DNA from: Candidatus Saccharimonadota bacterium
GTDB lineage: Bacteria; Patescibacteriota; Saccharimonadia; Saccharimonadales; Saccharimonadaceae
NCBI GenBank assembly: GCA_049296095.1
Contig: JBAQRV010000001.1
Location: 678,318-710,317 of the forward strand
DNA length: 32,000 nt
Reading direction: 5' to 3'
Shown here: in pieces, positions 1 to 31,190 of the stretch
How the letters are laid out: each line of letters starts with the position of its first letter
How positions within the stretch are numbered: the first letter of the stretch is position 1
Made by a program: the position numbers and the translations under genes
The notes under the pieces: generated by a model
What the model saw: the letters and a program-made list of their open reading frames with translations, nothing else
Told to the model about the DNA's origin: nothing
The model's database searches: none

Positions 1-699
1 CACTTGCTTCTCGACTGAGAAATCAGGCTTATCGACAACAAATTCGTAGATAACATATCCAGCAAATTGGTTACAACCAGGAAGTGAGCCATTTAGGCTG
101 TCATATCCCAGCGGGGTTCCAGACGTGAGGAAGCTATCAGGAAGTGTGGCACCATTAACAGCACCATTACTTGTGACTTTTGCTGATGCAGGAACATATC
201 GCAAGTACAGCTTGTCACCAGTTTCGTTCTTCATGTTTGCGCTGTCCCATACAGATGTAGGGTTAGCGTTAGATGAGTTGATGAAACCACTAACAAGTGA
301 TGTTGTGTTAGCTGTAACTTCTCCGGGCATCTGCATACGTAGGGTAACGTCTTTTGCAATGCCAGCACCACTTGCATTTAAGCTAGTGGCTGCGTTGTTG
401 TGGTAATAAACCATAACTTGGTACGTTTTGCCCGCTTGGAGCGAAACGTTCTCGTCGTAGTCAGCTTGTGTGCCCTTTTCACGAACACGTACAAAGTTTC
501 GCTCATCGCCAACACTTGGGTTGTCGGTGATCGAGTTAAATGTAACGTAAGGGGCAGGGTTTGCGAACGTAAATGTTGCGCGGTCTACCGGACCATAAGC
601 GAAGACGGCTACTGGAACAATAATTGCTGCTGCAATCATTGCGACAACTGCTGTTACGCGTTTTGGAGCACGGCGGATGAGTGAGAGTAATTTACTCAT
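1..699 (-). CDS. Secreted/cell-surface protein, N-terminal 233 codons only (gene runs off the window start)
   Basis: Absent from the ORF track because it has no in-window stop. I checked all plus-strand frame-1 triplets over 1-699 and none is tta/cta/tca, so the minus strand is open. The ATG is the complement of 697-699, with GGAG (708-711) 8 nt upstream. The product starts MSKLLSLIRRAPKRVTAVVAMIAAAIIVPVAVFAYGPVDRATFTFANPAPYVTFNSITDNPSVGDERNFVRVREKG..., a basic N-terminus plus a hydrophobic span (signal/anchor) followed by an Asn/Ser/Thr-rich extracellular-type sequence. Confidence 0.7.
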   Translation of the reverse strand, partial: MSKLLSLIRRAPKRVTAVVAMIAAAIIVPVAVFAYGPVDRATFTFANPAPYVTFNSITDNPSVGDERNFVRVREKGTQADYDENVSLQAGKTYQVMVYYHNNAATSLNASGAGIAKDVTLRMQMPGEVTANTTSLVSGFINSSNANPTSVWDSANMKNETGDKLYLRYVPASAKVTSNGAVNGATLPDSFLTSGTPLGYDSLNGSLPGCNQFAGYVIYEFVVDKPDFSVEKQV

Positions 700-785
700 T
701 ATTGATTCTCCGTTTCTTGATTCATCTCGCAGGATTGAATCAAACTTAATATAAAAATTGAAAACACTGTTACCGGATTGTCAAT

Positions 786-828
786 GTTACAAATCAGATC
801 ATTACAATGTGCACGTTCTTGCCGCACG
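786..828. repeat. Left arm of imperfect inverted repeat (IR-L)
   Basis: gttacaaatcagatcattacaatgtgcacgttcttgccgcacg aligns with the reverse complement of 3070-3110 (gttaacaagtcagatcattacagtgcacgttctttagcacg). My hand alignment gives 37 identical positions, including perfect blocks of 13 bp (tcagatcattaca) and 12 bp (gtgcacgttctt). Confidence 0.8.
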
Positions 829-923
829 AGTAAGGGATTACTCCCAAGGAATCTAAGACTATGAGGTGGGCGAACCACCAGATAGAAGATAGACTCCTTA
901 GGTCAAAGCTGTAGGCGAGGTTC

Positions 924-959
924 CCAGGGGGCAGCACGACAGGTCGTGTCACCCCCTGG
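924..959 (-). terminator. GC-rich hairpin downstream of the 968..2020 gene (no U-tract)
   Basis: ccaggggg (924-931) pairs with ccccctgg (952-959), and inner cacgac/gtcgtg arms are also present. It lies 9 nt after the minus-strand stop. The lack of a T-run makes it an actinobacterial-style or merely stabilising hairpin. Confidence 0.35.
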
Positions 960-967
960 TTCACTCA

Positions 968-2020
968 TCAGGCGTCTGGATCCGCGATCGGTGTAGTCGG
1001 CGCCTGTGTAGGTGGCGGCGCGATAACGGGATCAGGCGCGGGAGCGGGAACGGGAACAGGATCGGAGTGTGGCGGGGTTGCCGGGTTCAAAGGAACCGCG
1101 GGTGCCACCGGTGGAGTGTGCTCCGGTGCGTCAATCCCTTTCGGGGCGACGAACGGGGGCTCATCCACACTGTCAATCTGGTTCTTCGCGTCACAGTTCA
1201 CCGTACAGGGAGGAGGACCGCAGTTAGTGGTGCACGGGGGCACCTCACTGCAGTTCTCCGTGCACCCAGGCTGGGCCGGAGTTCCTTCACACTCGAAGAC
1301 TTCCAACCTCTTGTCCTCGGCGTTGAAACCGATTCGGAAGAGGCAGTTGCCGTTCTTGTCCAGGAGTGTGCGCACCCATGCGGGCTTGCTCTCCTGTTCG
1401 GACGCCAACCTTGCGGTCGGCAGTGTGATAGGTGAGGCATCGGCGGGGACCTCCCAGTTCCTGATCGAGGTGAGCGACTGCTTACCCTCGGTCGTGAAGC
1501 GGAGCAGGACGGCGTTGAGCCATCCAGCGTACTTCTGGAACTGAGGAGTGACGATCAACACGTCGTTCTCGGTCTTCTCGACGAACGAGTCGAGACCGTT
1601 GGTGTTGATGTCATCCAGAATGACCTGGATCCACGCCTTGTTGCCTTCTGCGCCCTTGACGGTCCACAGCATCATGTCGTCGGCGATCATACGGAGGAAC
1701 GTGGGGTTACCACAGACCTCCATCGTGACCTCCTTGTTCACAGCTTCGTCGTCGGACCCCGCGACGGGGATCGAGACTGCTGTTGCGAACTGACGGTACT
1801 CCGAATTGCCGACCTTAACGGTCTGCAGGGAGGAGTCGATGAAGTGGTTATCGGTGCACCGCGCGTCGTCGGGAACCAGATCGGTTTCCGGGTCGAACGC
1901 AACAGTGCCGGACGGGGTGTTGCTGGAATCCGTGGCCTGGAAGGCGAACGGCACCAGCAAGATCCCCACAACGACGACTGCAGCAATGGCTGCCACAATC
2001 CCCTTTGCTTTCTTGCTCAT
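968..2020 (-). CDS. Hypothetical N-terminally membrane-anchored protein with Cys-rich CTxNC triplet and Pro-rich C-terminal tail
   Basis: 350-aa ORF with a strong SD (GGAGG on the minus strand, 5 nt before the ATG). N-terminal hydrophobic span GIVAAIAAVVVVGILLVPFAF. Motifs CTENC..CTTNC..CTVNC are followed by a PxP-rich tail. High GC3. The overlapping ORFs in other frames look like GC artefacts. Confidence 0.75.
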   Translation of the reverse strand: MSKKAKGIVAAIAAVVVVGILLVPFAFQATDSSNTPSGTVAFDPETDLVPDDARCTDNHFIDSSLQTVKVGNSEYRQFATAVSIPVAGSDDEAVNKEVTMEVCGNPTFLRMIADDMMLWTVKGAEGNKAWIQVILDDINTNGLDSFVEKTENDVLIVTPQFQKYAGWLNAVLLRFTTEGKQSLTSIRNWEVPADASPITLPTARLASEQESKPAWVRTLLDKNGNCLFRIGFNAEDKRLEVFECEGTPAQPGCTENCSEVPPCTTNCGPPPCTVNCDAKNQIDSVDEPPFVAPKGIDAPEHTPPVAPAVPLNPATPPHSDPVPVPAPAPDPVIAPPPTQAPTTPIADPDA

Positions 2021-2147
2021 TTTGACCTCCTAGGCCAATCGGTCCCTAATTCTTAAAGCCCCAGGGAAAGGATGGGCTAGCGAGCGAGGCGGTATGAGCC
2101 GCCACAAGACAAATCTTGTAGAGTCAAAACTCTTCGCCCTGTCCGCA

Positions 2148-2846
2148 TTACGCTACGGGCACAGCGGCTGGCGGTGCCGGCGGGTTGGGCTGAGCTACCT
2201 CGTCCTCCGGGGAGGTGAAGTAGCCACTCAGGAAGAACCCGAGTGCCGGCCAGCCGACCCAGTGAAGGATCGACAGGATAACTCCAGCCACGTGCCACTT
2301 GGGATCGTGGTTGAAGAACCAGTCCTGCACGAACCACCCCCAAAGGAGGGCGGCGACGAGCAGGGCGAGCACGGTCGCGAAAGCGATGAGCCATCCCCAG
2401 CGATGCCAGTTCCACCGCCTCGGGTTGAAGTTGGTGTACCAGTGGTGAGCCGGCGGCGTCACAACCACAGCCGCCGGAGCGGGTGCGGGAATGACGACGG
2501 TGTCGATGACCGGCTCGGGCACGACCGCTGCGGGTGCAGCGACGGGCTCGGGTTCGGTGATGACCGGCTCGGGAACGACCGCTGCGGGTGCAGCGACGGG
2601 CTCGGTGGAAGGAGGGGCAACGGGCAGGTCAGGATCGATCTGGCTGAGGACTTCCTCTGCTTCGTCGATCCTGTCCTGCAAGCGTCGCTTTGCCAAGCGC
2701 GCGCCGTAGTCGATCTCGGACTGCACTTTGAGTGCATCCTTGATCTCCTTCCTGCGCTTCTTGACTTCCTTCTTGCCTGCGGCGCTCAAGTCGAGCAGCG
2801 CATTAGTGGCGGCATCTGCCTCATCGGCAATATCGATGGTGGACAT
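2148..2846 (-). CDS. Hypothetical membrane protein: charged N-terminal helix, duplicated Pro/Val/Ala-rich linker, Trp-rich C-terminal region with two hydrophobic spans
   Basis: 232-aa ORF with SD GGAAAGGGA upstream on the minus strand. Hydrophobic spans WGWLIAFATVLALLVAALLWGWF and VAGVILSILHWVGWPALGFFLSGYF. High GC3. The antisense 263-aa ORF (2094..2885) has junk-like composition. Confidence 0.75.
   Translation of the reverse strand: MSTIDIADEADAATNALLDLSAAGKKEVKKRRKEIKDALKVQSEIDYGARLAKRRLQDRIDEAEEVLSQIDPDLPVAPPSTEPVAAPAAVVPEPVITEPEPVAAPAAVVPEPVIDTVVIPAPAPAAVVVTPPAHHWYTNFNPRRWNWHRWGWLIAFATVLALLVAALLWGWFVQDWFFNHDPKWHVAGVILSILHWVGWPALGFFLSGYFTSPEDEVAQPNPPAPPAAVPVA
2505..2612. repeat. Tandem duplication, 2 x 54 bp, inside CDS 2148..2846
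   Basis: gatgaccggctcggg[c/a]acgaccgctgcgggtgcagcgacgggctcgg occurs at 2505 and again at 2559 with one mismatch in the first ~47 nt. It encodes EPVAAPAAVVPEPVI twice, and the 54-bp period preserves the reading frame. Confidence 0.85.
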
Positions 2847-3006
2847 AGTATCCCTTTCCTATTTCGTGTGTCGAGTTGGGGATGACCCCGAATCAATAAA
2901 GATTGGGGAGGACCCCCAGCTGCGTGACACTAGGTCAGGTGCAGCGTGTCAATTAACCATATAAATGATTAACTGGCGCGCCACACCTGAAAGAAAGGTA
3001 CTGTCT

Positions 3007-3024
3007 GGTATACTTGCGTATACC
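3007..3024. promoter_or_regulatory. Perfect palindrome ggtatac-ttgc-gtatacc in AT-rich region upstream of the minus-strand operon
   Basis: 7-bp arms with a 4-bp spacer read directly from the sequence. It lies between the ATG at 2846 and IR-R, and could be an operator or an RNA hairpin. Confidence 0.3.
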
Positions 3025-3069
3025 TATAGCTTTGTTATCAGTGCGTCTTAAAGCATGAATATAAATAGA

Positions 3070-3110
3070 CGTGCTAAAGAACGTGCACTGTAATGATCTG
3101 ACTTGTTAAC
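3070..3110. repeat. Right arm of imperfect inverted repeat (IR-R)
   Basis: cgtgctaaagaacgtgcactgtaatgatctgacttgttaac is the reverse-complement partner of 786-828. Confidence 0.8.
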
Positions 3111-3297
3111 GACCTCTCCACGTCCATGAGCCTCACGCCCACTGGTGAATGATGTTCTTAATCTATCATATTAATGCTAAATTGTCAATAACGTAAGCAA
3201 TAATATGACATAAAGCACAAGCATTATTGATTACCATTCTCGACAGACGCTATATGTAGCGGTGATTCCAGATATGAAACACTATATATAATACTAT

Positions 3298-3326
3298 TTG
3301 ACAAGGGTTGTCAAGGAGAGTATATT
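3298..3326 (+). promoter_or_regulatory. Sigma-70-type promoter TTGACA-17-TATATT with a palindromic operator over the -35
   Basis: TTGACA at 3298-3303, a 17-nt spacer, TATATT at 3321-3326. TTGACAA-ggg-TTGTCAA (3298-3314) is a perfect 7-bp-arm inverted repeat. The downstream ORF pair starts at 3413 with SD AAGGGAG. Confidence 0.55.
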
Positions 3327-3412
3327 GCCATGTTATGTGCAGAATCAGCGCCCGCTGGTTGCTTGGATCTCATGATTTGAGTTTAGTGCACTGTGCAAAA
3401 TAAGGGAGTCGC

Positions 3413-3748
3413 ATGACTATTGCATCACCCGAGTCCATCACTCGGCCCATCGACGAGATGGTGACGGAGGGTTTCAGAGAGACCTGTGACAAAGTGATTG
3501 CTAACGGTGGACTCGTTCACCAGATGCAAGATAGGCTGTTCCAGCTCTGCGAAATCTCCCAACGCCAGTACGACATCGAGATGGTGAGGGACCTGATGGT
3601 CTACCTGGTGATAATTAAGGGGGTGTTTATCGGTGCCGTTGTACGAGAAATCCGTCTTCACGACGTTATATTCTCGGACCTCGTCGCGAAGGAAGCTGCT
3701 CAGCGGAAGGCTGTAGTGGCTGACGGTGACAAGGTCGCAGCGGCATGA
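3413..3748 (+). CDS. Hypothetical small protein (111 aa), first of an overlapping pair
   Basis: ORF with SD taAGGGAGtcgcATG. Its stop overlaps the next start (ATGA at 3745-3748). GC is moderately high. No recognisable family. Confidence 0.6.
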   Translation: MTIASPESITRPIDEMVTEGFRETCDKVIANGGLVHQMQDRLFQLCEISQRQYDIEMVRDLMVYLVIIKGVFIGAVVREIRLHDVIFSDLVAKEAAQRKAVVADGDKVAAA

Positions 3749-4092
3749 CCGTCGTCGACATTCGAATCCCTTGGGATTCTAAGGTGTACGTTGTGCCGGC
3801 TGTAACGGTAGAGGTTATCAATAAACACTTGGCGAACGGTACGGTATTCTCGGGAGAGATAGCCCGGGCCGTAGATGCCGAGCTGGTTGCCTCAACAGCG
3901 AAAGTTAAAAATGGCGCATACCTACTCGGTCAGGTACGAAGAGGGCTGTACATCTACGCTGTGTTCGAAGGGGGCTTAAGAGCGCCAGAGCTGACGTGGC
4001 TCGCTCGACAGCTAGACGGTAATGCAGTCAGGGTCATCTGTCATGACGCGGCACGTCGCCGCCAAAGGATGCGGATGGGGTTGGCTGTATGA
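3745..4092 (+). CDS. Hypothetical small protein (115 aa), translationally coupled to 3413..3748
   Basis: 4-nt ATGA overlap with the upstream ORF. Arg-rich C-terminus (AARRRQRMRMGLAV). No recognisable family. Confidence 0.6.
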   Translation: MTVVDIRIPWDSKVYVVPAVTVEVINKHLANGTVFSGEIARAVDAELVASTAKVKNGAYLLGQVRRGLYIYAVFEGGLRAPELTWLARQLDGNAVRVICHDAARRRQRMRMGLAV

Positions 4093-4258
4093 CGATCCCA
4101 TTGGACGACCCAACAAACATACCTTTTGCAGAGACTAAGACAGTCTCGCTGAAGGTTGAGCTCGGGACTTCGAAGACCTAGCTCAACAACCTGTCGGGGG
4201 ACCCGCGGCCACAAGCTGCGGGCCCCGACGGGTTCACAAAACTCATGTACACCGTTAG

Positions 4259-4283
4259 CCTCTAGTCAAACAGAGGTTTTTTT
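4259..4283 (+). terminator. Rho-independent terminator candidate
   Basis: cctct (4259-4263), 8-nt loop, agagg (4272-4276), then 7 T (4277-4283). The short stem makes it only moderately strong. Confidence 0.5.
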
Positions 4284-4332
4284 GATACAATTTCCCGAGT
4301 CGAAAGATATTTTTTTGATCTATTCTTTTGAT

Positions 4333-4407
4333 GGTCTCATCGTCTAACGGTTAGGACACCAGGTTTTCATCCTGGCAATCGGAGTTCGATTCTCCGTGAG
4401 ATCACCA
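4333..4407 (+). tRNA. tRNA-Glu (anticodon UUC), CCA encoded
   Basis: Cloverleaf parse: acceptor GGTCTCA/TGAGATC, D arm TCGTCTAACGGTTAGGAC (very similar to the E. coli tRNA-Glu D arm), anticodon stem CCAGG/CCTGG with loop TTTTCAT (UUC), T arm CGGAG-TTCGATT-CTCCG, discriminator A plus CCA. Confidence 0.95.
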
Positions 4408-4457
4408 AAAGAATCGCTCAAACTCTTTCGACACTCCATTTAAACAAAGGGAAAACT

Positions 4458-5873
4458 ATGGGAATTATTTTCAAACGTACCAAAATCTTAGCAACAGTTG
4501 GTCCTGCCACTGGAACACCAGAGATGATCGAACAACTCATTACCGCAGGTGTGAATGGTCTTCGTCTTAACTTTAGCCACGGAGACTATGCTGAACGCGA
4601 TAATCAGATTACTTGGATTCGTGAAGCCAGTAAAAAGATTGGCAAACCAGTCGCTATCTTACAAGACCTTCAAGGCCCAAAGATTCGTCTGGGAATGTTG
4701 AACGAAAACACCGCTGTTAAAAAAGGTGATGAAATTATTCTTGATCACGCCGCTGAACATAACGGCATGACCTTTCCTGTTCAGTACAACCTGGCTGAAA
4801 AGGTAAAGGTTGGTGAGCCAATTTACATCTTTGACGGTAAGGTTCGTACCACTGTTCTCGAGATTACTTCTGAAACCGCCATTAAGCTCCGCGTTGAGAA
4901 TGACGGTACCTTGATGAGCAAAAAGGGTATTAACCTGCCTGATACTGACTTTGGCGGTGACATCCTCACCCCGAAAGATCTTAAGGATATCGAATATGGT
5001 CTGACTAAAGATATTGACTATGTTGCACTTAGCTTCGTTCAGAGTCCTGACGATATTCACAACCTTCGACAAATCCTGGTTGCAGGGGGTTCACAGGCAC
5101 AGATTATTGCCAAAATCGAGACCAAAGCAGCGATTAAAGACGACGTTCTTGAAGCAATTGTTAAAGCGACTGACGGTATTATGGTAGCGCGTGGAGACTT
5201 GGCGGTTGAGGCTGGTGCTGAAATCGTTCCTATCGTCCAGCGTCGCCTGATCGCACTGTGCCGTAAGCACGGTAAATTGAGCATTGTCGCAACACAAATG
5301 ATGGCCAGCATGGTTGATGCGCCCGAGCCAACTCGCGCAGAGGTGAGTGACGTTGCGAATGCGGTTATTCAAGGTGCAGATGCGGTGATGCTCTCTGATG
5401 AGACGGCGAACGGTAGTTATCCTCTCGAAACGGTTGCGGCTATGAAGAAGGTCATTCTGTATACACAAGAGAATGCTCCTGTTGCTCCAATCCACGACGA
5501 GATTGTGGCCAAGAATATGCAACTTGATGCAATTAGTACCGCCGCAGTAAAACTTGCCGAGCAATTAAAGGTGTCGGCTATTATTGCTGAAACAAAATCA
5601 GGCGCGACAGCCGCCCAGATTGCAGCCCACCGTCCAAACCTGCCAATTGTCAGTGTGACCAGTGAACTTCGAGCTGCGCAGCAACTTGGCCTTAGTTACG
5701 CTAATCGTAGCTACGTTCGTCCAGATAGCCCAGAAGCGGGCTTCGACCTCGCAAAGGAACTGAAACTCCAAGGTTTCTTTGGTGATGAGCCAGCAACGGT
5801 GATTATCGTCAGTGGCCAACAGCCTGGAATCATCGGAACTACTGACACGATCAAAGTCCGCGTGCTAGAATAA
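4458..5873 (+). CDS. pyk: Pyruvate kinase
   Basis: 471 aa. N-terminus KRTKILATVGPAT, LNFSHG, and the MVARGDLAVE and MLSDETANG motifs are typical of pyruvate kinase. SD aaaGGGAaa upstream. Confidence 0.95.
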   Translation: MGIIFKRTKILATVGPATGTPEMIEQLITAGVNGLRLNFSHGDYAERDNQITWIREASKKIGKPVAILQDLQGPKIRLGMLNENTAVKKGDEIILDHAAEHNGMTFPVQYNLAEKVKVGEPIYIFDGKVRTTVLEITSETAIKLRVENDGTLMSKKGINLPDTDFGGDILTPKDLKDIEYGLTKDIDYVALSFVQSPDDIHNLRQILVAGGSQAQIIAKIETKAAIKDDVLEAIVKATDGIMVARGDLAVEAGAEIVPIVQRRLIALCRKHGKLSIVATQMMASMVDAPEPTRAEVSDVANAVIQGADAVMLSDETANGSYPLETVAAMKKVILYTQENAPVAPIHDEIVAKNMQLDAISTAAVKLAEQLKVSAIIAETKSGATAAQIAAHRPNLPIVSVTSELRAAQQLGLSYANRSYVRPDSPEAGFDLAKELKLQGFFGDEPATVIIVSGQQPGIIGTTDTIKVRVLE

Positions 5874-5898
5874 TAGTACTGATTAACAGGGTGGGTAC

Positions 5899-7122
5899 TT
5901 GAGCTTTTTTAAACTGACAATTCGTGATGTTCCGCTCGATCACCAGACGGTGTTGGTGCGAGCAGATTATAATGTGCCTCTGAATAAAAAAGGGGAGATT
6001 GAGGATGACCTGCGCATTCGGGCGAGTTTGCCTACGCTTCGTTATCTCCATGAACGTGGCTGTAGAATTGTCATCATAAGTCACCTCGGGCGGCCAGAGG
6101 GGAAGGATGCGTCGTTGTCGCTGGAGCCCGTCGCCAACAGATTGGCAAAGCTATTGGATCATCCCGTCACCTTCGTGGATGACTGTATCGGTGACAAGGT
6201 GGTTCAAGCGGTAAAGAAATCCTCGCCCCACTCTGTTACTTTGCTCGAGAACCTGCGGTTTTATAAAGAAGAAGAGGCGGACGATGCGGCCTTTGCCAAA
6301 AAAATTGCCACGGCAACCAATGCTCGGTATTTTGTTCAGGATGGCTTCGGGGTCGTTCATCGGGCGCATGCCAGCACACATGCCATTACCCTCTGTATTC
6401 CCAGTGTTGCTGGTCTTTTGTTGGAGCGAGAATACAAAACCATTACCGAGGCGATGGAAGCACCAAAACGCCCCTTAGTGGCAGTGTTGGGCGGTGCTAA
6501 GATTGCAGACAAGATCGGGGTGATTGAGCGTTTTGTCCAGATTGCAGACAAGATTATTATCGGTGGCGCAATGGCTAATACCTTCCTTAATTACAAAGGT
6601 TTTGATATGGGCGCCAGTCTATATGAAAAGGACGAGCACGAGGTACTCGATCGGATTTATCAGGCAGCACATAAAAAACATGATGGGAGCGTTGAAGATT
6701 TTATTATACTGCCATCTGATGTGGCTGTAGCAGAGGAGGCTACCTCTGGTGTTGAGCGCCGCATCGTGACATTGGGGGATATTAGTCCCAAGGATAAAGC
6801 GCTAGATATCGGTGATGCTTCAATCGAACGGATGGTAGCTGAGGTCGCTCATGCAAAGACAGTGATTTGGAACGGAACTCTGGGGTATGCCGAATTGCCG
6901 ACTTTTGCCCATGGCTCGGCTCGGTTGGCATTGGCACTCGCGACCCAACCCAAAACCACCTCTATTATCGGTGGTGGCGATACAGCTGATTTTGTGCTGC
7001 AATGGGACGCTCAGGATGGTGAGAGCTTTTCACATGTTTCCACTGGCGGCGGCGCTAGCCTAGAGCTGATGGCTGGGGAAAAATTACCAGGCATCGAGAG
7101 TTTGCTGGATGCACGCAAATGA
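5899..7122 (+). CDS. pgk: Phosphoglycerate kinase
   Basis: 407 aa with a TTG start. LTIRDVPL..VLVRADYNVPL, SHLGRP, and C-terminal STGGGASLELMAGEKLPG are PGK hallmarks. Confidence 0.93.
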   Translation: MSFFKLTIRDVPLDHQTVLVRADYNVPLNKKGEIEDDLRIRASLPTLRYLHERGCRIVIISHLGRPEGKDASLSLEPVANRLAKLLDHPVTFVDDCIGDKVVQAVKKSSPHSVTLLENLRFYKEEEADDAAFAKKIATATNARYFVQDGFGVVHRAHASTHAITLCIPSVAGLLLEREYKTITEAMEAPKRPLVAVLGGAKIADKIGVIERFVQIADKIIIGGAMANTFLNYKGFDMGASLYEKDEHEVLDRIYQAAHKKHDGSVEDFIILPSDVAVAEEATSGVERRIVTLGDISPKDKALDIGDASIERMVAEVAHAKTVIWNGTLGYAELPTFAHGSARLALALATQPKTTSIIGGGDTADFVLQWDAQDGESFSHVSTGGGASLELMAGEKLPGIESLLDARK

Positions 7123-7156
7123 GCTACACTAACAGTAATAAGCATAAGTGGTAATC

Positions 7157-7936
7157 ATGGCTAGGGACAAGACGCTCATTATCGGTAACTGGAAGATGAA
7201 CCTCGGAGTACACGAGGCGAGTTTGTATTTGCATAAACTTGAGAAATCGGTCAAACAGCACCGAAATGTCGAAGTGGTGTTGGCGCCGACGATGCTCACC
7301 CTCCAGACACTGAGCCTACAGGTGAATTATCGTCAATTTAAACTCGCTGCTCAGAACTTCTACTGGCGTGATCACGGTGCATATACCGGTGAAGTTTCGG
7401 CGACGCAGCTGCGCGGGATCGTTTCTTATGCTCTCGTTGGACACTCTGAGCGACGTCATATCTTCCATGAATCCGACAAAGATACTCGTGCGAAGGTGCA
7501 GGCAGCGATTCGTAATGGGATTCGTCCTGTGCTTTGTGTTGGTGAAACGGCGAGCGAGCGGGCCTTGGATGAAACACAGGATGTGATTCATGATCAGCTT
7601 ATTGGTGGCCTCGCGAATGTGACGAGTGAAGAACTGGGGGAGGTGGTGATTGCATACGAACCAGTCTGGGCAATTGGCACGGGACAAAACGCCCTCCCAG
7701 GCGACGTGATTGCGGCTGTCCGTTCAATCCGCAGCCAGTTGAAGCATCTGTATGGCGCCAAGGCTGCTGATAGTGTCCAGGTCCTCTATGGGGGAAGTGT
7801 GACAGCTGACAGCGCTGCTGATTACCTTTCTCTTCCAGAAATCGACGGGTTATTGGTCGGCGGTGCTAGTTTAGATGAAAAAGCCTTTAGTAATATTGTC
7901 GAAAAAGCTTATACTAATGGTAAGAAAGATAAATAG
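7157..7936 (+). CDS. tpiA: Triosephosphate isomerase
   Basis: IIGNWKMN, VGHSERR and AYEPVWAIGTG motifs. The ORF track starts at GTG 7148, but ATG 7157 gives the canonical N-terminus (MARDKTLIIGNWKMN). Confidence 0.93.
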   Translation: MARDKTLIIGNWKMNLGVHEASLYLHKLEKSVKQHRNVEVVLAPTMLTLQTLSLQVNYRQFKLAAQNFYWRDHGAYTGEVSATQLRGIVSYALVGHSERRHIFHESDKDTRAKVQAAIRNGIRPVLCVGETASERALDETQDVIHDQLIGGLANVTSEELGEVVIAYEPVWAIGTGQNALPGDVIAAVRSIRSQLKHLYGAKAADSVQVLYGGSVTADSAADYLSLPEIDGLLVGGASLDEKAFSNIVEKAYTNGKKDK

Positions 7937-8844: not shown

Positions 8845-10953
8845 ATGAATTTACTTGAGGGTTTAAACGAGGCACAGCAAGAGGCCGCGAAGGTCACGAC
8901 TGGCCCTCTCTTGATTTTAGCTGGTGCGGGAAGTGGAAAAACTAAAACACTGACGCATCGAATCGCCCGGCTGGTTGCTGAAGAAGGTGTCTGGCCGAAT
9001 CAAATTCTGGCGGTTACTTTCACCAATAAAGCAGCTCGCGAAATGCGTGAGCGCCTTAGTCACCTCTTGGGACAAGAGAATAATCGCAACTTTATGCCGT
9101 GGATGGGAACATTCCACGGTATTTGCGTGCGTTTGCTTCGAATGGATGGTCAGGCAATTGGGATTGCTCGAAACTTCGTCATTTATGACGAGGATGATCG
9201 GCAGTCTTTGATCAAGCAGGCGATGAAGCAACTCTCGATCAGCGACAAAGAAATCAAGGCCTCACAGGCAAGCAGTACAATCTCGAATGCCAAGAACGAA
9301 ATACGCACGCCAGATGATTATGAAACGGCGGCGAACTATCCTTATGAGAAAAATATCGCCAAGATCTACAAACGCTATGAAACCATGCGCAAGGAAGCGG
9401 GAGCGCTTGATTTCGATGATCTGCTTCTCGATGGTGTCCGTTTGCTCCGTGATGATCCTGCAATGCGCAAGAAATGGCGAGACCACTTTAAATATATCTT
9501 GATTGATGAGTACCAAGACACCAACGCTGCGCAGTATCAGCTGGTGAAGTTATTGGTGAATGACGATAAGAACATTTGCGTGGTCGGTGATGACTGGCAA
9601 TCGATCTATAGCTGGCGTGGTGCCGACTTTACCAATATTCTGAATTTTGAACGGGACTTTCCTGGTGCGAAGGTGGTCAAGTTGGAGCAAAATTATCGTA
9701 GTACCGGCAATATCCTCGAAGCTGCGCACAACGTTATTTCAAAAAATACCCAACGAACTGACAAGAAACTTTGGACGGCTGAGGGCCCCGGTTCACCGGT
9801 CCAGGTGCACGGGGTATATGATGAGGCTGAAGAGGCGAGAATGGTGGCTGAGCGGATCTCGACACACGTGGCAATGAAGGCACGAACTTTTGATGAGTTT
9901 GCCGTTTTGTACCGTACGAACGCTCAGAGCTATACTTTAGAACGAGCTTTCTTGCAATTACGCGTCCCCTATCAATTAGTTGGCGGCGTGCGTTTCTATG
10001 ACCGCAAGGAAATTAAAGATGTTATCGCCTATCTGCGATTACTCTACCAACCAAATGACCGGATGAGCTTTAGCCGTATCGCCAATGTCCCCGTCCGCGG
10101 CGTCGGTGCAACCAGTCTCGAAAAGTTCTTTGATTGGCAGTCTGCCAGTGGGTTGGATATCATTACGGCGCTCAATGAGGTCGAGGGAACGAGTACTATT
10201 ACGGCACGCGCAAAACAAAGTCTCGGTACTCTTGGACGTATTCTACGGGGACTGACGCTGTCTATCGAAACTTCTTCACCAGCTGAACTTATTGAGTCAG
10301 TGATCAGCGCAGTTGGGTATCGTGATTATATCCTTGATGGTACTCCACAGGCCGAGGACAGAGAGGCAAATATTGGCTCGCTATTGTCCGATGCGCAGAA
10401 CTTTAGTGACTTGCCTGACTTCCTCGAGGAAGTTGCGCTGATGTCGAGCGCCGATAATAGTGCAGATGGACAGAAAGTAACACTTATGACACTCCATGCT
10501 GCCAAAGGGCTAGAGTTCCCGGTTGTCTTTATTGTCGGTATGGAGGAAGGGATTATTCCGCATGCCCGTGTTTTTGAATCAGGCCCCGCTGAGCTAGAAG
10601 AGGAGCGTCGTCTGGCCTATGTTGGCATGACGCGTGCTCGTGAAGAGTTGCATCTCAGCTATGCCTATAGCCGTTTGCAGTTTGGCCAGCGTAGCTATAA
10701 TCCAATGTCACGGTTCATTAGTGATATGGGTGACCAGATTGTGGCCAGTGAGCCTGCTTCGTTGATGGGTCAGCGGCAGGATGAACCGTTTTATAGTGAT
10801 GACCTCGGCTTTGCAGTTGGTGATCATGTCAAATCAGCTGCCTTTGGAACAGGCGAGATCATTGACGTCGATGGCATGGCCGTCACGGTTGCGTTTAAGG
10901 GTGGACAGACCAAGAAGCTCAACGCCGAATATGCTCGGCTCGAAAAGCTTTAG
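8845..10953 (+). CDS. pcrA: ATP-dependent DNA helicase PcrA/UvrD family
   Basis: 702 aa. Walker A AGAGSGKT, DEYQDTN, VGDDWQSIYSWRGA, TLHAAKGLEFP, and YVGMTRAREEL. Confidence 0.93.
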   Translation: MNLLEGLNEAQQEAAKVTTGPLLILAGAGSGKTKTLTHRIARLVAEEGVWPNQILAVTFTNKAAREMRERLSHLLGQENNRNFMPWMGTFHGICVRLLRMDGQAIGIARNFVIYDEDDRQSLIKQAMKQLSISDKEIKASQASSTISNAKNEIRTPDDYETAANYPYEKNIAKIYKRYETMRKEAGALDFDDLLLDGVRLLRDDPAMRKKWRDHFKYILIDEYQDTNAAQYQLVKLLVNDDKNICVVGDDWQSIYSWRGADFTNILNFERDFPGAKVVKLEQNYRSTGNILEAAHNVISKNTQRTDKKLWTAEGPGSPVQVHGVYDEAEEARMVAERISTHVAMKARTFDEFAVLYRTNAQSYTLERAFLQLRVPYQLVGGVRFYDRKEIKDVIAYLRLLYQPNDRMSFSRIANVPVRGVGATSLEKFFDWQSASGLDIITALNEVEGTSTITARAKQSLGTLGRILRGLTLSIETSSPAELIESVISAVGYRDYILDGTPQAEDREANIGSLLSDAQNFSDLPDFLEEVALMSSADNSADGQKVTLMTLHAAKGLEFPVVFIVGMEEGIIPHARVFESGPAELEEERRLAYVGMTRAREELHLSYAYSRLQFGQRSYNPMSRFISDMGDQIVASEPASLMGQRQDEPFYSDDLGFAVGDHVKSAAFGTGEIIDVDGMAVTVAFKGGQTKKLNAEYARLEKL

Positions 10954-11018
10954 CATGACGCTGGCGGCCTTGTTTGCTATACTAAAAGGAACACCTAGGG
11001 GGTGTTAAGTAAATAGTA

Positions 11019-12197
11019 ATGAAACAACTACGACACAGGTCCACCATATTCGTGAGCGTCGGTATAGCTACCGCTGTGCTTTTACTTGTCTCCCTTATTT
11101 CTTTTGTTAGTCCACGAGTCATGGCAAGTACTCAATCTGGCCGCCTGGTGACGATTCATGATCGTGGTGAGCAGAAGTCCTTCCTGAGTGACGCCGAGAC
11201 GGTTGCCGATGCGTTGAGCGATGCGGGGGTGACGCTTGATGCTCACGATGCAATTGAGCCAGCGCTTGATCAAAAACTGATTGCGCGGGAATATGAAGTA
11301 AATATCTATAGGGCTCGTCCTGTTATCGTGATTGACGGTCCGACGCGTCAGAAGGTAATGACGCCGTATCAAGTAGCCGACCGCATCGTGAAAGATGCGG
11401 GTGTTACTTTGTACCCAGAAGATACGACGTCCGTCACGCGAACGAACGATTTGGTATCCGATGGTGCTGGATTACAGCTGACAATTGATCGAGCTATGCC
11501 GATGACCTTGACACTTTTTGGAAGTAAAACCGAGATTCGGACTCAAGGTGAGACTGTTGGTGATATGCTGCGAGAAAAGGGTGTGGAGCTAGCGCAGAAC
11601 GATCGGGCGTCGGTCGCTTTATCCACGCCAATTCAAGCCGGAATGAATGTGTCGGTCTGGCGCGAAGGCAAGCAGACGGTGACTGTACAGGAAGAGGTGG
11701 CGTTTGGTGTCGAAGTGATTCGTGATGCTGATCAATATACCGACTACAAGGCTGTACAATCGGCTGGACAAGCGGGTCAGCGTAATGCTACCTATGAAAT
11801 TGAAATTAAGGATGGCATCGAAGTGAGTCGAGTTGAAATTGCTTCACTAGTGACGCTTCAGCCCGTCAAGCAAGTGGAAGTTGTTGGAGTGAAGGTGAAA
11901 GTCATGCCATATACAGGTGGGGGGACGAAAACGGAGTGGCTGGCTGCTTCAAATATCCCTCAAGAATCATGGGGATACGCCGATTTTATGGTCCAGAAGG
12001 AAAGCGGCTGGAATCCGAACGCGATCAACAAAAGCTCAGGTGCTTGTGGGCTTGCCCAGGCGTTACCTTGTTCAAAGGTCCCTGGCGACCCTTACAATCC
12101 TGTAAACTCCCTTAACTGGATGAATAGTTACGTCAACGGTCGTTACGGTGGTTGGCAGGGCGCATACAACTTTTGGGTAGCGAATCACTGGTACTAA
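11019..12197 (+). CDS. RpfB/YabE-like cell-wall protein: TM anchor, DUF348-like repeats, G5-like domain, C-terminal lysozyme-like (SLT/Apf-type) domain
   Basis: 392 aa with an N-terminal hydrophobic span. Repeated ~45-aa units carry ..TVGD(A/M)L...GV.L...D pattern. C-terminus QKESGWNPNAINKSSGACGLAQ...GGWQGAYNFWVANHWY. Synteny with rsmA directly downstream matches rpfB-ksgA and yabE..ksgA arrangements. Confidence 0.8.
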   Translation: MKQLRHRSTIFVSVGIATAVLLLVSLISFVSPRVMASTQSGRLVTIHDRGEQKSFLSDAETVADALSDAGVTLDAHDAIEPALDQKLIAREYEVNIYRARPVIVIDGPTRQKVMTPYQVADRIVKDAGVTLYPEDTTSVTRTNDLVSDGAGLQLTIDRAMPMTLTLFGSKTEIRTQGETVGDMLREKGVELAQNDRASVALSTPIQAGMNVSVWREGKQTVTVQEEVAFGVEVIRDADQYTDYKAVQSAGQAGQRNATYEIEIKDGIEVSRVEIASLVTLQPVKQVEVVGVKVKVMPYTGGGTKTEWLAASNIPQESWGYADFMVQKESGWNPNAINKSSGACGLAQALPCSKVPGDPYNPVNSLNWMNSYVNGRYGGWQGAYNFWVANHWY

Positions 12198-12198
12198 T

Positions 12199-12975
12199 AT
12201 GACTGGTCCAAAAAAATCACTCGGACAACACTGGCTCAAGGATCGTGACGTTCTGGCGGGCATTGCCGAAGCGGCTGATATTCGGCCAACTGACGCAGTG
12301 CTCGAGATTGGCCCTGGCTTGGGGACATTGACCAGTGAACTCTTGCGACGCGCTAACAGAGTGATCGCGGTCGAACTTGATAAAGAACTTGCCACGAAGC
12401 TACCAGGTCAGTTTCCTGGTACGAATCTAGAGGTTGTTCGGCAGGATATTCTGAGTTTTGACTTATCAAAATTACCTAAAGACTATGTTGTCGTGGCGAA
12501 TGTTCCGTACTATATCACCTCAAAAATCATTCAACTATTATTAAATGCTGATAATAAACCCAGGGTAGCAGTCTTGTTGGTGCAGAAGGAAGTGGCTGAG
12601 CGGTTGGCTGCAGGGGCAGGTGATATGAGTATTCTTGCCATCAGCGCCCAGCTGTTTTCCGAAGTCTCACTTGGTGATGTTGTACCGGCTCGTTTCTTTA
12701 CACCGCCACCAAAGGTAGATAGTCAGGTGGTAGTGTTGAAATTGCGCGATCATCCCCTTGTTTCGGCAGAGGATGAGAAGGAATTTTTCCGTGTCGTGAA
12801 GGCCGGGTTCTCGGCTAAACGTAAAAAGCTTCGAAGTAGTCTATCTGGTGGATTGGGCATTTCGAAATTTGAGGTAGAGGAGTTGCTCCGGCGTGCCTCG
12901 ATCAGTGCTGATGCTCGGGCAGAATCTTTATCGATTGATGATTGGACTCGTCTCGTGAAAATTGCTGCCTCATAG
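12199..12975 (+). CDS. rsmA: 16S rRNA (adenine1518/1519-N6)-dimethyltransferase RsmA/KsgA
   Basis: 258 aa. KSLGQHWL, SAM motif VLEIGPGLGTLT, NVPYYITS. Confidence 0.93.
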   Translation: MTGPKKSLGQHWLKDRDVLAGIAEAADIRPTDAVLEIGPGLGTLTSELLRRANRVIAVELDKELATKLPGQFPGTNLEVVRQDILSFDLSKLPKDYVVVANVPYYITSKIIQLLLNADNKPRVAVLLVQKEVAERLAAGAGDMSILAISAQLFSEVSLGDVVPARFFTPPPKVDSQVVVLKLRDHPLVSAEDEKEFFRVVKAGFSAKRKKLRSSLSGGLGISKFEVEELLRRASISADARAESLSIDDWTRLVKIAAS

Positions 12976-12981
12976 TGCTCG

Positions 12982-12990
12982 TGCTAAAAT
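12982..12990 (+). promoter_or_regulatory. Extended -10 TGcTAAAAT 9 nt upstream of ATG 13000 (leaderless-type)
   Basis: gTGcTAAAATagcagcactATG. Confidence 0.4.
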
Positions 12991-12999
12991 AGCAGCACT

Positions 13000-14430
13000 A
13001 TGAAGCAACGCTCAACAACTCTGCGATCTCAAGCTTTTACGATCGTCGAATTGATTATTGTCGTAGCTGTCATCGGTATCTTAGCAACGATCGGTATCGT
13101 TTCATACGGGGCAATACAGGCGAACGCTCGTGATAAAGCAATCTTATCTGATCTTGATGGCGTGGCTGGCGAATTAGCGCATTACGCGGTGAATAATGCT
13201 GGGGTATATGGAAGTGCTGTAGAGTGGTATTCCCCAGATGGCGAGAATGTAAACATACGATTTAGCCCTTCTAATGGCAACGTCATTGATGTCGTTGCAA
13301 ATGATACAGATTATTGTATTAGAGGATATAATTTAGCTGCTGGGCAATATAGATCTCTCGCAACAGCGTACACGAAGGGCTCAAGTTCGACCGCTTGTGA
13401 TACTCTTAGTGCTTCGAGTGCAGCTATTGCTGCGGGGACGGCTGCTTTCACTGACCTCACTTGGACGCCGCAGTCCAGCCCAGGGACGCATCGCTGGAGT
13501 ACGGTCGCAATATCTGCTGATGGCACAAAGCAAGCCGCCGGTGTTTCAAACGGAGGATATGTCTATACATCAGATGATTCAGGATCCACCTGGACGGCTC
13601 GTACAAGTCTAGGATCACGTTATTGGACTTCTATTGCAATGTCATCTGACGGAAGTAAGTTAATAGCTGCGTATAGCACTGGTCTCCCTGGGTCATACCT
13701 TTATAGGTCGACCGATGGTGGTGTAACATGGTCCTCCCTTGCGAGCGCTGGACAGAGGTCGTCGTGGGGTGTCGTTGCATCCTCGGCTGACGGGACAATC
13801 TTATATGCGGGAGCTGGCTATGATCCATCAGGTTCGTATATACAGAAGTCGACAGATTCAGGTGCTACCTGGTCGCCTCTCACAAGCTCGCTCATGAGTG
13901 GATATGGTTGGGGTTCGGGGACGATTGATGTCTCATCCGATGGGAGCAAGCTGGTCATGGTACAAGGTGGGAACTTGTATGTATCAACTGATGGGGGTGC
14001 TACTTGGAACTTACGGATTACAGCGACAGGGAGTATATATGTCGTTAATCCAACTATATCTGCGGATGGAACTAAATTGGCAGCTACTGTCTCCACATCG
14101 GACACTACCGGTTCTATCATGACATCTACAGATTCGGGGGCTACATGGACGACACAAGCAGGAGCGGGAACGCATCACTGGCATGGCATCGCATCCTCAT
14201 CTAACGGTTCTCGTCTCGTTGCGGGCATCGACCCAGATGCCTCTACTGGCGGCAGCACTCATAATGGTCAAGTATATACCTCATTGGATAGTGGAGTGAC
14301 CTGGACGCAGCAGAGCGGACCTAGCCCAGGTAACTATAGGGCGGTCGGTATTTCGGGAGATGGTTTAAAACTTATAGTCGGGTCATATTACAACTCACTC
14401 ATCAATACTGGCGTCTACACCGCTCCTTAA
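13000..14430 (+). CDS. Type IV pilin-like N-terminus fused to a BNR/Asp-box beta-propeller domain
   Basis: 476 aa. The class III signal-like N-terminus RSQAFTIVELIIVVAVIGILATIG has Ala, not the canonical Gly, at -1. There are six S-x-D-x-G-x-T-W boxes (SDDSGSTW, STDGGVTW, STDSGATW, STDGGATW, STDSGATW, SLDSGVTW) alternating with S(S/A)DG(S/T)KL strands. Confidence 0.8.
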   Translation: MKQRSTTLRSQAFTIVELIIVVAVIGILATIGIVSYGAIQANARDKAILSDLDGVAGELAHYAVNNAGVYGSAVEWYSPDGENVNIRFSPSNGNVIDVVANDTDYCIRGYNLAAGQYRSLATAYTKGSSSTACDTLSASSAAIAAGTAAFTDLTWTPQSSPGTHRWSTVAISADGTKQAAGVSNGGYVYTSDDSGSTWTARTSLGSRYWTSIAMSSDGSKLIAAYSTGLPGSYLYRSTDGGVTWSSLASAGQRSSWGVVASSADGTILYAGAGYDPSGSYIQKSTDSGATWSPLTSSLMSGYGWGSGTIDVSSDGSKLVMVQGGNLYVSTDGGATWNLRITATGSIYVVNPTISADGTKLAATVSTSDTTGSIMTSTDSGATWTTQAGAGTHHWHGIASSSNGSRLVAGIDPDASTGGSTHNGQVYTSLDSGVTWTQQSGPSPGNYRAVGISGDGLKLIVGSYYNSLINTGVYTAP

Positions 14431-28243: not shown

Positions 28244-28517
28244 AGCACATTTTGTGATTCTGTCTACTGATGTTGTTTGGTGAGAGCTAAATAACACATG
28301 CGGGTGGGTTACAGATCACGAATGAGCCTGCCATAACTGTCGTACGGGTACCGAAACTCATAAATTAATTAATATCGGTCGACATGTACCCTGTTCTCTC
28401 GCAAGGAGAGAAGTTAAGACTTAGTAAGGTAGACGCCCCCGGAGCAATCCGAGCGGCAGGAGAACGATAATTCGTAATGATATTACGACGAGTAGCAATA
28501 CTCAAGTTGGAACAGCC
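28244..28517 (+). promoter_or_regulatory. Long structured 5' leader of the LysM-CHAP gene (candidate cis-regulatory RNA/riboswitch, class unassigned)
   Basis: About 270 nt between the predicted TSS and GTG 28518 with no plausible ORF. Hairpins include ttctctc-gcaag-gagagaa, cgga-gcaa-tccg, gagta-gcaa-tactc and tcgtaat-gat-attacga. Long-range pairs are gtgattctgt/acagatcac and acgggtac/gtaccctgt. Confidence 0.45.
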
Positions 28518-30961: not shown

Positions 30962-31190
30962 ATTTTCATATAATTAGTGCAAGCAAACTGCCTTTATTGT
31001 AAATTACCTACAATCTCAGATGATTGAGCGAAAACTCCTGCCTGGACACATTGAAAAACTTGCCTGATACGCGATAAGGTGATATTATCATCTCTAATCC
31101 TTTGATCGAGCTACTTGCTCTCAAATGATCATTCACAATATAAGAGAGTGACTTTCCAAGTTTCTAGCCTGAAGGCTATTTGAGATAAGT

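Follow-up and report, generated by a model that had tools for sequence, protein, structure and literature searches.

The 32,000-nucleotide window analysed here (contig JBAQRV010000001.1 of assembly GCA_049296095.1, positions 678,318–710,317) comes from a Candidatus Saccharimonadota bacterium and contains, near its left end, a GC-rich module of four protein-coding genes arranged in two divergent pairs around an AT-rich hub. We refer to the leftward pair as the cargo genes; beyond them lies a CLIPPER-domain surface-protein gene (1–699, minus strand), and beyond the rightward pair of small genes lie a tRNA-Glu gene and the pyruvate kinase (PK) gene. The cargo is framed by two conserved non-coding elements, a pair of mutually complementary sequences that we call the bracket arms and a structured leader RNA, neither of which matches an Rfam 15 family (the only Rfam matches at E ≤ 1 within 650–4460 were to tRNA). 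The features of the module, in window coordinates with strand, are as follows.

785–828 (−): 3′ arm, complementary to the 5′ arm, with its core at 789–806, a 2-nt bulge, a second helix at 809–820 and a further segment at 824–828
924–959 (−): GC-rich hairpin in the 3′ untranslated region (UTR) of the 350-aa gene, with 17-nt arms that are 82% complementary; not called as an intrinsic terminator
968–2020 (−): cargo gene 2, 350 aa, with an N-terminal membrane anchor or signal, an ectodomain of ~210 residues with four invariant Cys, a Cys/Pro stalk and a Pro-rich tail ending ...TPIADPDA
2148–2846 (−): cargo gene 1, 232 aa, with an architecture that we read from its sequence as a charged, probably helical N terminus, Pro/Ala repeats and a hydrophobic, Trp-rich C-terminal part resembling membrane helices
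2851–3003 (−): structured 5′ leader, with a pyrimidine tract at 2991–3000, hairpin P1 at 2935–2990, a terminator-like hairpin at 2904–2918, another hairpin at ~2872–2890 and a ribosome-binding site (RBS) at 2851–2860
3070–3125 (−): 5′ arm, with its core at 3089–3106 (ACAAGTCAGATCATTACA, read from 3106 to 3089), a second helix at 3077–3088, a segment at 3070–3076 and the conserved upstream context GGAGAGGTCGTTA
3160–3188 (−): cargo-operon promoter, TTGACA, 17 nt, TAGATT, with a TG-extended −10
~3210–3226 and 3248–3261: hub boxes, the first resembling AAGCTTGTGCTTT and the second the palindrome CGCTA-N4-TAGCG (CGCTATATGTAGCG), conserved in eight species
3298–3326 (+): divergent small-gene promoter, TTGACA, 17 nt, TATATT, 11 of 12 consensus matches
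3413–3748 (+) and 3745–4092 (+): two overlapping, GC-rich small genes of 111 and 115 aa, largely replaced by unrelated small genes in relatives
4093–4285 (+): 3′ region of the small-gene operon, GC 0.56, with two candidate hairpins seen by eye and a terminator stem at 4257–4278 followed by a T-run; the right compositional boundary
4333–4407 (+): tRNA-Glu(UUC)

A GC-rich module native to Saccharibacteria

A sequence-only reading of this DNA had called attention to a GC-rich island in a mid-GC backbone, and its GC figures all hold: GC content is 0.28 at 3181–3240 and reaches 67% in the richest 60-nt line of the 968–2020 gene, with lines within 961–2020 ranging from 0.50 to 0.67 (mean 0.60). GC amounts to 60.5% over 840–2960 and 54.7% over 3413–4257, compared with 48% elsewhere in the window. 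In 500-nt segments it is 0.57–0.65 over 751–3000, 0.50–0.55 over 3251–4250 and ~0.43–0.53 in the remainder of the 32 kb, and 60-nt lines with at least 60% GC account for 21 of 34 lines in 841–2880 versus 26 of 472 outside. The composition shifts abruptly at ~830 and ~4260. The genes at 968–2020, 2148–2846, 3413–3748 and 3745–4092 have GC contents of 0.607, 0.641, 0.536 and 0.549, and their GC contents at third codon positions (GC3) of 0.749, 0.768, 0.643 and 0.569 correspond to z = 5.8, 6.2, 3.8 and 2.3, respectively, against a backbone GC3 of 0.447 ± 0.052 (22 genes). The untranslated spacers of the cargo operon have a GC content of 0.38–0.59, moderately raised over the 0.32–0.40 of backbone spacers in the window.

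The codon shift is uneven between amino acids (3,137 island codons versus 27,614 backbone codons). GC-ending codons gain +0.36 to +0.48 for Phe, Ile, Lys, Gln, Pro, Leu, Tyr, Asn and His, but just +0.11 for Ala and +0.03 for Gly. The two-fold families of the island prefer NNC over NNT (TTC 0.96, TAC 1.00, AAC 0.83), and AGG and AGA are both raised, AGG making up 26% of Arg codons. Nearly unbiased Ala and Gly third positions and such frequent AGG are not simply the style of a high-GC genome, which counts against the earlier description of the codon usage as actinobacterial in style, although what we take an actinobacterial gene to look like in this setting is a presumption rather than a test.

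An abrupt change in composition at both borders is what would be expected if the DNA of a GC-rich organism had been joined to a Saccharibacteria contig during assembly, and the 275-kb contig of the metagenome-assembled genome (MAG) GCA_049286885.1 does end at window position 4660 inside the PK gene, a second, 27-kb contig carrying the remainder of the window. Independent assemblies and synteny nevertheless exclude the chimera that had been named as the chief alternative, and, short of an artefact common to different assemblers and samples, we give it a negligible probability. Contigs of the NCBI MAG and of Logan assemblies from five runs match the window at 100% identity across the left junction (over 1–2550, 725–2085 and 810–2428), and on the right side another Logan contig (L008) covers 2576–4361, comprising the hub, the small genes and the junction into the tRNA. 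Moreover, the complete TM7i chromosome and many metagenomic contigs preserve the order CLIPPER gene, module, tRNA-Glu, PK gene.

The backbone belongs to Saccharibacteria, as the sequence-only reading had supposed. The window contains a lysM-TM7 RNA (RF03005, 87 bits), a known TM7-specific cis-regulatory motif, at 28326–28462 (+), upstream of a LysM/CHAP gene at 28518–29606, and NCBI names the island proteins as those of a Candidatus Microsaccharimonas sp. Also as supposed, searches of Pfam, PHROGs and NCBIfam assigned none of the four island proteins to a recognised family; the same three databases returned nothing usable for ten small or first-gene proteins of relatives and six other cargo proteins.

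Relatives of the island were found within the same lineage. Among 5.8 billion proteins we found 27 relatives of the 350-aa protein, those with names belonging to Microsaccharimonas and TM7i, and the identical sequence occurs on five Logan assemblies and in GCA_049286885.1 (Candidatus Microsaccharimonas sp.). The genomic contexts of five relatives all place the gene at the same Saccharibacteria locus, between the CLIPPER-domain surface-protein gene and the PK gene, with the same histidine kinase, response regulator and folD genes adjoining, and homologues lie between CLIPPER and PK genes in TM7i (a complete genome) and in eight other lineages. When one genome per species was considered, five of 185,579 species carried the 350-aa gene; four of these are titled Saccharibacteria, and the title of the fifth, the MAG BP8.bin114, gives no taxon, but the same locus is present there. 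A profile of the ectodomain matched 252 proteins at E ≤ 1e-3 among 1.84 billion representatives, and of ten matches whose names we looked up the two with usable names were from Saccharimonadales and Saccharibacteria. One distant copy of the ectodomain occupies residues 416–601 of P0098, a 721-aa protein of a Candidatus Saccharibacteria bacterium, where it is fused to a protein that NCBI names a DMT family transporter. Searches with the 232-aa and 115-aa proteins recovered only themselves among the 5.8 billion proteins, although Pro-rich words saturated the candidate list of the 232-aa search. Neither the 350-aa protein nor the island DNA matched phages or plasmids (tblastn and blastn), and the 111-aa protein had no match in plasmids, the sole set searched with it. 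In viral contigs the ectodomain profile found no match, and the 14 matches to the arm core all lacked arm context and are attributable to chance.

These results bear on the most attractive claim of the sequence-only reading, that the four genes came from an actinobacterial host and were put under native promoters. Saccharibacteria are naturally competent, and the GC and GC3 far above the backbone and the GC-rich hairpin lacking a U-run also count in favour of that idea. In addition, TM7i, the sole cultured genome with this gene family, grows on Leucobacter, an actinobacterium (PMC9894109); the paper describing it contains no statement on this locus (PMC9894109). However, no relative outside Saccharibacteria turned up in the protein, profile, species-genome, phage or plasmid searches, the locus is syntenic and equally GC-rich in the relatives that carry this gene, the different cargo types share Saccharibacteria-specific stalks and tails, and neither the Ala, Gly and Arg codon usage, with a GC3 of 0.65–0.8, nor the lack of mobility genes and att repeats speaks for import. 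The same genes with the same composition thus recur in relatives and the best matches lie inside the lineage, with the one departure that other relatives carry other cargo, which is likewise GC-rich; in essence this is the outcome that the sequence-only reading had itself set as refuting it. The part of the claim concerning AT-rich consensus promoters stands, as these are conserved across the lineage, whereas the origin in Actinomycetota does not, the named relatives being Saccharibacteria. In these comparisons we found no sign that the island is host-derived DNA: the compositional observation is confirmed, but the host-origin reading is not supported and we consider it very improbable, which removes an attractive claim of host-to-epibiont gene transfer.

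The adjacency to tRNA-Glu(UUC), which the earlier reading had correctly pointed out, raised integration at a tRNA as a candidate. We rejected it, as we found no integrase and no att-like direct repeat and as 9 kb of other genes separate the module from the PK gene in UBA6040. The tRNA is a neighbour of the module in the window but not a constant one. More generally, we saw no mobility signature at the locus, in that we found no direct repeat derived from the tRNA and no neighbouring protein belonged to a recombinase family.

Bracket arms and the leader RNA

The 5′ arm lies in the 5′ UTR of the cargo operon, ~45 nt downstream of the predicted transcription start, and the 3′ arm follows the 3′ hairpin of the 350-aa gene and precedes the CLIPPER −35 box, ending ~90 nt upstream of the CLIPPER start at 699. 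Arms of ~30–45 nt were present in all nine species first examined and later in 37 complete cassettes; a scan of public metagenomes for the arm core returned 120 loci, roughly half of which, by reading, had the full arm context. Position 12 of the core is C in 28 of the 37 cassettes and T in nine, and it is the same in both arms in 37 of 37. After a bulge of 1–4 nt, a second helix extends for 9–12 bp in 30 of the 37, with up to four pair types at a single position, and the predicted energy of the arm duplex is −50 to −65 kcal/mol. In all 31 loci with both a complete cassette and a CLIPPER gene (loci found through the cargo or arm motif), the cassette is co-directional with CLIPPER and its 3′ arm lies 83–216 nt upstream of the CLIPPER open reading frame (ORF), while the cargo varies.

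Arm-bracketed cassettes also occur elsewhere. In L103, a contig of a low-GC Saccharibacterium, three of them stand in tandem at 10342–13470, between a ribosomal-protein cluster (the end of rpsI) and trpS, each running from its own promoter through 5′ arm, leader, ORF and 3′ hairpin to a 3′ arm. They encode proteins of 125, 278 and 203 aa, of which the 278-aa protein ends in a hydrophobic stretch, and they are not GC-rich. Because these tandem cassettes lie away from CLIPPER, the unit is not tied to the CLIPPER gene.

Because compensatory change keeps the arms complementary, because the adjacent leader is an RNA structure and because each tandem unit has its own bracket, we infer that the arms most likely pair in RNA, in which case both arms would lie in one transcript. 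The hairpin at 924–959, which was rightly described as GC-rich and lacking a T-run, would be compatible with this arrangement, as the missing U-run makes read-through into the 3′ arm possible; similar 3′ hairpins were seen by eye in L023 and L103.

Two observations weigh against RNA pairing as the full explanation. Apart from one fixed G/A position, mismatches of the G.U type between the arms are no commoner than those of the A.C type (15 versus 14 cells), so the mismatches single out neither a strand on which the arms act nor the RNA level itself. In addition, the 18-nt core is conserved beyond what pairing alone requires, which suggests that it is a protein site. The arms might therefore act as DNA, either as recombinase sites for inversion or cassette exchange or as paired operators of a looping regulator that would co-control the cargo and CLIPPER promoters. 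Inverted repeats exactly at the borders of the exchanged segment, an almost invariant core, a 3′ arm at a fixed distance upstream of the CLIPPER ORF beside its −35 box and cargo that is truly replaced between lineages would all be at home in such a scheme. On the other hand, the uniform orientation of all 31 cassettes speaks against a switch that inverts often and makes inversion rare at best, the neighbourhood encodes no recombinase or known DNA-binding family, and the matched changes in both arms within a genome fit base pairing rather than a fixed protein specificity. The three tandem cassettes of L103, each with a promoter and leader, are moreover bracketed away from any CLIPPER gene, and the leader beside the arm is demonstrably an RNA structure. 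We regard a DNA function as a genuine but minority possibility and continue to favour pairing in RNA. A role for the arms as promoters was ruled out by eye, their spacing to −35-like boxes ranging from 13 to 22 nt between species.

For the leader, hairpin P1 is demonstrably an RNA structure. It consists of 12 pairs, 11 of which show compensatory changes; 90% of cells in the alignment are paired, versus 73% in shuffled alignments, and none of 500 shuffles reached its score. A covariance model of the leader (R1) matched 2913–3003 (−) at 70.6 bits as the sole locus in the 32 kb, its only other match in the window being a weak, 18-bit echo of the same hairpin on the opposite strand. Among related loci, roughly 45 of 74 matches were, by count, sense-strand leaders, and each one that we checked lay just downstream of a 5′ arm. 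The hairpin at 2918–2904 is terminator-like, with a U-rich tail.

The leader also appears to sequester the RBS. The fold of the leader has a z-score of −6.55 relative to shuffles, and its minimum-energy structure includes an anti-Shine–Dalgarno:Shine–Dalgarno helix between the pyrimidine tract and the RBS. In at least 15 of 24 cassettes the tract is predicted to pair with the RBS or the start region, and complementary extensions specific to particular lineages reach into the start codon. Judging from these predicted structures, the leader may gate translation of the cargo.

Upstream of the arm and leader, a promoter of the form TTGACA-17-TGnTAnAnT is conserved at the same place in eight species. 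The palindrome CGCTATATGTAGCG and the AAGCTTGTGCTTT-like box in the hub are likely operator sites, for which the variable small proteins encoded next to them are candidate binders. The 115-aa protein has a weak, helix-turn-helix (HTH)-like C-terminal similarity to its counterpart in L012, a 154-aa protein that itself gives a weak hint of an IclR-type HTH (E = 0.09). Partial relatives of the small genes were found in L061 (47%) and L133 (31%).

Cargo exchange and the persistent GC excess

The idea that the content of the locus is exchanged horizontally was borne out. In the metagenomic relative L065, PK is 90% and the kinase 73% identical to those of the window organism, yet the cargo has another ectodomain type; between L023 and L024, identity at four-fold degenerate sites is 0.68 in the cargo versus 0.37 in folD, and is thus discordant with the flanks. 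The ectodomain profile of the window protein matches 13 of 30 large cargo proteins. An N-terminal anchor and Cys/Pro stalks are common to the large cargo proteins, as are tails such as ...DPGTPITDPDG; their ectodomains differ, and the first cargo gene and the divergent small genes are replaced even more freely than the large cargo. An alternative first gene or N-terminal module with the repeated motif ALDAAAPD...WLAG(R/K) replaces the window-type membrane protein in several relatives, at the following places.

L012, 1792–2109
L022, 1195–1617
L023, 9341–9913
L043, N terminus of the cargo protein

For the 350-aa protein, an AlphaFold2 model has block-mean predicted local distance difference test values of 84–98 (mostly >90) over residues 41–240, and Foldseek found no match to the model at E ≤ 1e-3 in PDB or BFVD. 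Different ectodomain types end in the same short tails, either ...DPGTPI(T/A/G)DPD(G/A) or ...PPNEGGDN..G.F (window 968–1000, L065, L018 and others), which suggests a common sorting or anchoring signal. Judged from their sequences, a surface role for these membrane-anchored, Pro/Cys-rich products, encoded beside a CLIPPER-type surface protein, is plausible. The 232-aa protein has weak relatives in L018, L021, L024 and L015. Within its gene, a 54-nt tandem duplication at 2505–2605 (98% identical) encodes a repeated Pro/Ala segment, and short-read assemblies break there, three Logan contigs ending at 2550 and others starting at 2576 or 2593.

The CLIPPER-type gene itself gives similarities that disagree with those of folD and the kinase (72% for L012/L024, 73% for L015/L023 and 70% for window/L018); it probably recombines too, yet has an ordinary GC3. 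In L023 (UBA6040), extra putative surface-protein genes with a GC content of ~0.50 occupy 1072–7411, in the interval that separates the PK gene from the module. Among them is a gene for a 1234-aa protein whose repeated segments we read by eye as PKD-like and which also has a C-terminal domain.

The GC excess of the cargo is maintained across this turnover. In every relative the homologous cargo gene has a GC3 of 0.65–0.76 and the neighbouring genes 0.35–0.48, and the difference between cargo and backbone GC3 is +0.28 ± 0.02 in eight species (r = 0.83 with backbone GC3). Among 29 well-sampled cassettes with several cargo types, 21 have an excess of +0.17 to +0.38, with a median of +0.29. At backbone four-fold sites, identity is near saturation, 0.21–0.41 being observed versus 0.24–0.31 expected (PK, PGK, TIM, folD, kinase and response-regulator genes), with the CLIPPER gene above the other backbone genes; any neutrally evolving trace of foreign composition would therefore be expected to have mostly disappeared. 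In the cargo, polarised synonymous changes from G/C to A/T (strong to weak, S→W) and in the reverse direction (W→S) stand at 13:10 and 8:11 in the closest pair and reach up to 21:11 in deeper triplets, where a rough calculation of our own gives ~3:1 as the expectation under backbone bias. The per-site rate of W→S change is ~2 times that of S→W in the cargo gene, and the reverse holds in folD. As parsimony with saturated outgroups is biased and the counts are small, these substitution data weigh as supporting rather than decisive. Taken together, the sequence comparisons make the GC excess look stationary rather than like a fading foreign signature.

An ancient acquisition from a GC-rich donor at the base of the clade, inherited since and slowly losing its foreign composition, would fit the narrow distribution of the family in five of 185,579 species representatives, the somewhat lower GC3 of the cargo where backbone GC3 is lower and the triplets in which S→W changes outnumber W→S (19:9 and 21:11). 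It is nevertheless unlikely: with sites so near saturation, we roughly estimate that at most ~+0.15 would be left even from a donor GC3 near 1, and the uniform offset between species, the ~1:1 changes in the closest pair and the sharing of the excess by unrelated cargo types at the same site all speak against it.

Nor do the GC-ending codons look like translational optimisation of very highly expressed genes, which we judge to be a distinctly remote explanation. The strong NNC over NNT preference in the two-fold families is typical of highly expressed genes in many bacteria. However, 17 ribosomal-protein, SecY and RpoA genes from the cluster in L103, a related Saccharibacterium with lower GC, have NNC frequencies of 0.14–0.46, NNG frequencies of 0.12–0.44 and GC3 of 0.26–0.42, the glycolytic genes in the window have a GC3 of 0.44–0.51, and the raised AGG and AGA of the island run the other way.

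The GC-rich parts share the property of being exchanged; the divergent small-gene operon, which has no arms, is GC-rich too. The cause that we favour for the excess is a recombination-linked fixation bias resembling GC-biased gene conversion (gBGC), although we regard selection on the transcript as about equally likely. We favour the recombination-linked bias because the excess is confined to exchanged segments, because its codons are not those preferred by ribosomal-protein genes and because substitutions favour W→S. The same pattern has been described for recombining bacterial genes, in which GC-ending codons are likewise not the optimal ones (Lassalle et al., PMC4450053).

Several findings pull in the other direction. 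Eight cassettes from low-GC genomes have little or no GC excess despite the same frame. In seven cassettes the excess is at most +0.07; all seven come from genomes with a backbone GC3 of ≤0.33, and they comprise four cassettes with small non-surface proteins (three in L103 and one in L116) and three with large proteins. A uniform gBGC does not predict the uneven shift between amino acids, and the CLIPPER neighbour combines discordant similarity with an ordinary GC3. Finally, an offset of +0.28 in GC3 is reportedly far above the recombination effects described in bacteria.

Selection on the transcript offers another account of the excess, in which recombination plays no causal part: GC-ending codons would be retained by avoiding AU-rich RNase sites, giving a long-lived mRNA, or by evading AT-binding silencers. 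This account draws strength from the codon shift, which is greatest in codons with A/T-rich first and second positions and least in GGN and GCN, from the RNA-centred design of the cassette (arms, leader and 3′ hairpin) and from the only moderate rise of GC in the untranslated operon spacers. It fits less well with the GC-rich divergent operon that lacks arms, with the same-frame cassettes that are not GC-rich in low-GC genomes and with the strong shift of Pro (CCN), whose first two bases are already G/C. We hold transcript selection to be nearly as likely as the recombination-linked bias, which we retain as the preferred cause.

At the far end of the window, 31000–32000 contains no ORF of at least 60 aa, no tRNA and no Rfam match, and the contigs of three other assemblies end at 31962–32000; a repeat or an rRNA operon probably starts just past the window end.

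A probable expression site for exchangeable cargo and its relation to known systems

With a probability of roughly 0.6, we read 785–4285 as a native, Saccharibacteria-specific expression site for exchangeable cargo that consists mostly of surface proteins, situated directly upstream of a CLIPPER-type gene, with arms that pair in RNA and a GC content kept up by fixation bias. The lineage restriction, the synteny, the conservation and covariation of the arms and P1, the turnover of the cargo and the constant GC3 offset form the foundation of this reading, on which RNA-level arm pairing, translational gating by the leader, a surface or host-contact role and the cause of the GC bias are built as its conditional parts.

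In outline, an AT-rich hub with two consensus promoters would drive two operons, a divergent one for small proteins that differ between lineages and a cargo operon whose membrane-anchored products have variable ectodomains and hold Cys/Pro stalks and tails in common. The cargo mRNA would begin with the conserved 5′ arm, followed by the structured leader, whose outer helix is predicted to sequester the RBS, and would end with the 3′ hairpin and then the 3′ arm complementary to the 5′ arm. Pairing of the arms could close the transcript into a bracket that is processed or protected, by analogy with rRNA stalks or the icaR duplex, and the leader would then gate translation. Between lineages, cargo would be replaced by recombination within the conserved frame, and the high GC would be the stationary state that arises from a G/C fixation bias at silent sites of the exchanged cargo.

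More speculatively, the unit may represent an undescribed kind of cassette, composed of a promoter, a 5′ arm, an RBS-masking leader, exchangeable cargo, a 3′ hairpin and a 3′ arm, with ends paired in RNA, host-contact proteins as cargo and a GC-biased fixation driven by transformation; we offer this as a tentative proposal. If it is true, the locus would exemplify a novel RNA-based architecture of regulation, would rank among the strongest local signals of GC bias in bacteria and would mark genes that determine host range in epibionts. The analysis also points to probable variable surface proteins of the cultivable TM7i as candidates for host recognition. For screens that detect horizontal gene transfer by GC or codon usage in reduced genomes, it matters that a native locus can stably maintain so marked an anomaly of composition.

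The module resembles tRNA-associated genomic islands in its atypical composition, its tRNA neighbour in this genome, its unknown genes with surface features and a content that varies between relatives. Unlike such islands, it has no integrase or att repeats, its adjacency to a tRNA is inconsistent, its frame and position are conserved, no donor outside Saccharibacteria was found for it and its composition is stationary rather than decaying. An invertible switch or shufflon likewise has a segment flanked by inverted repeats, but here all 31 assembled cassettes are in a single orientation and no recombinase family occurs among the neighbouring proteins. Integron cassettes consist of a promoterless ORF with an attC hairpin and depend on intI and attI, whereas the cassettes described here have their own promoter and leader, the repeats bracket the ORF and no integrase was seen in the loci. 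Closer in organisation are variable surface-antigen and capsule loci, in which a conserved frame holds interchangeable surface cargo that is unrelated or diverged; the frame here differs in having complementary arms and a dedicated structured leader, and the cargo in carrying a compositional signature.

At the RNA level, the arms recall the processing stalks of rRNA operon transcripts, which flank 16S and 23S rRNA and are cut by RNase III. In both cases long-range helices join (or, for the arms, are predicted to join) the two sides of each unit, as in the three individually bracketed tandem units of L103, but each unit here encodes protein and possesses a promoter of its own. Fold-back pairing of 5′ and 3′ ends is also a property of hok/sok-type mRNAs, with which the cassette would share end-to-end pairing of a membrane-protein mRNA and an occluded translation start; the cargo here comprises surface proteins of 350–540 aa rather than small toxins, and neither an antisense RNA gene nor a plasmid context was identified. 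The icaR mRNA of Staphylococcus aureus has a 3′ UTR that pairs with its 5′ UTR (PMC3868564), so that, as proposed here, complementary 5′ and 3′ untranslated segments of one operon occur together with a separate RBS-masking element. The putative duplex of the cassette differs in its length of ~30–45 bp, in lying far upstream of the RBS, in covarying across many lineages and cargo types and in leaving the masking of the RBS to the leader's own pyrimidine tract.

For composition, the nearest precedent is gBGC in recombining bacterial genes (PMC4450053), with which the module shares a GC3 excess confined to exchanged genes, non-optimal GC-ending codons and signs of recombination at the locus; the effect here is much larger, is uneven between amino acids and is absent from the recombining CLIPPER neighbour and from low-GC relatives. 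The locus thus combines two known kinds of system, a variable surface-protein locus and a cis-regulatory RNA, and what sets it apart is that the GC-rich cassette is conserved and stationary within a reduced genome of mid GC content and is framed by two elements that match no Rfam family.

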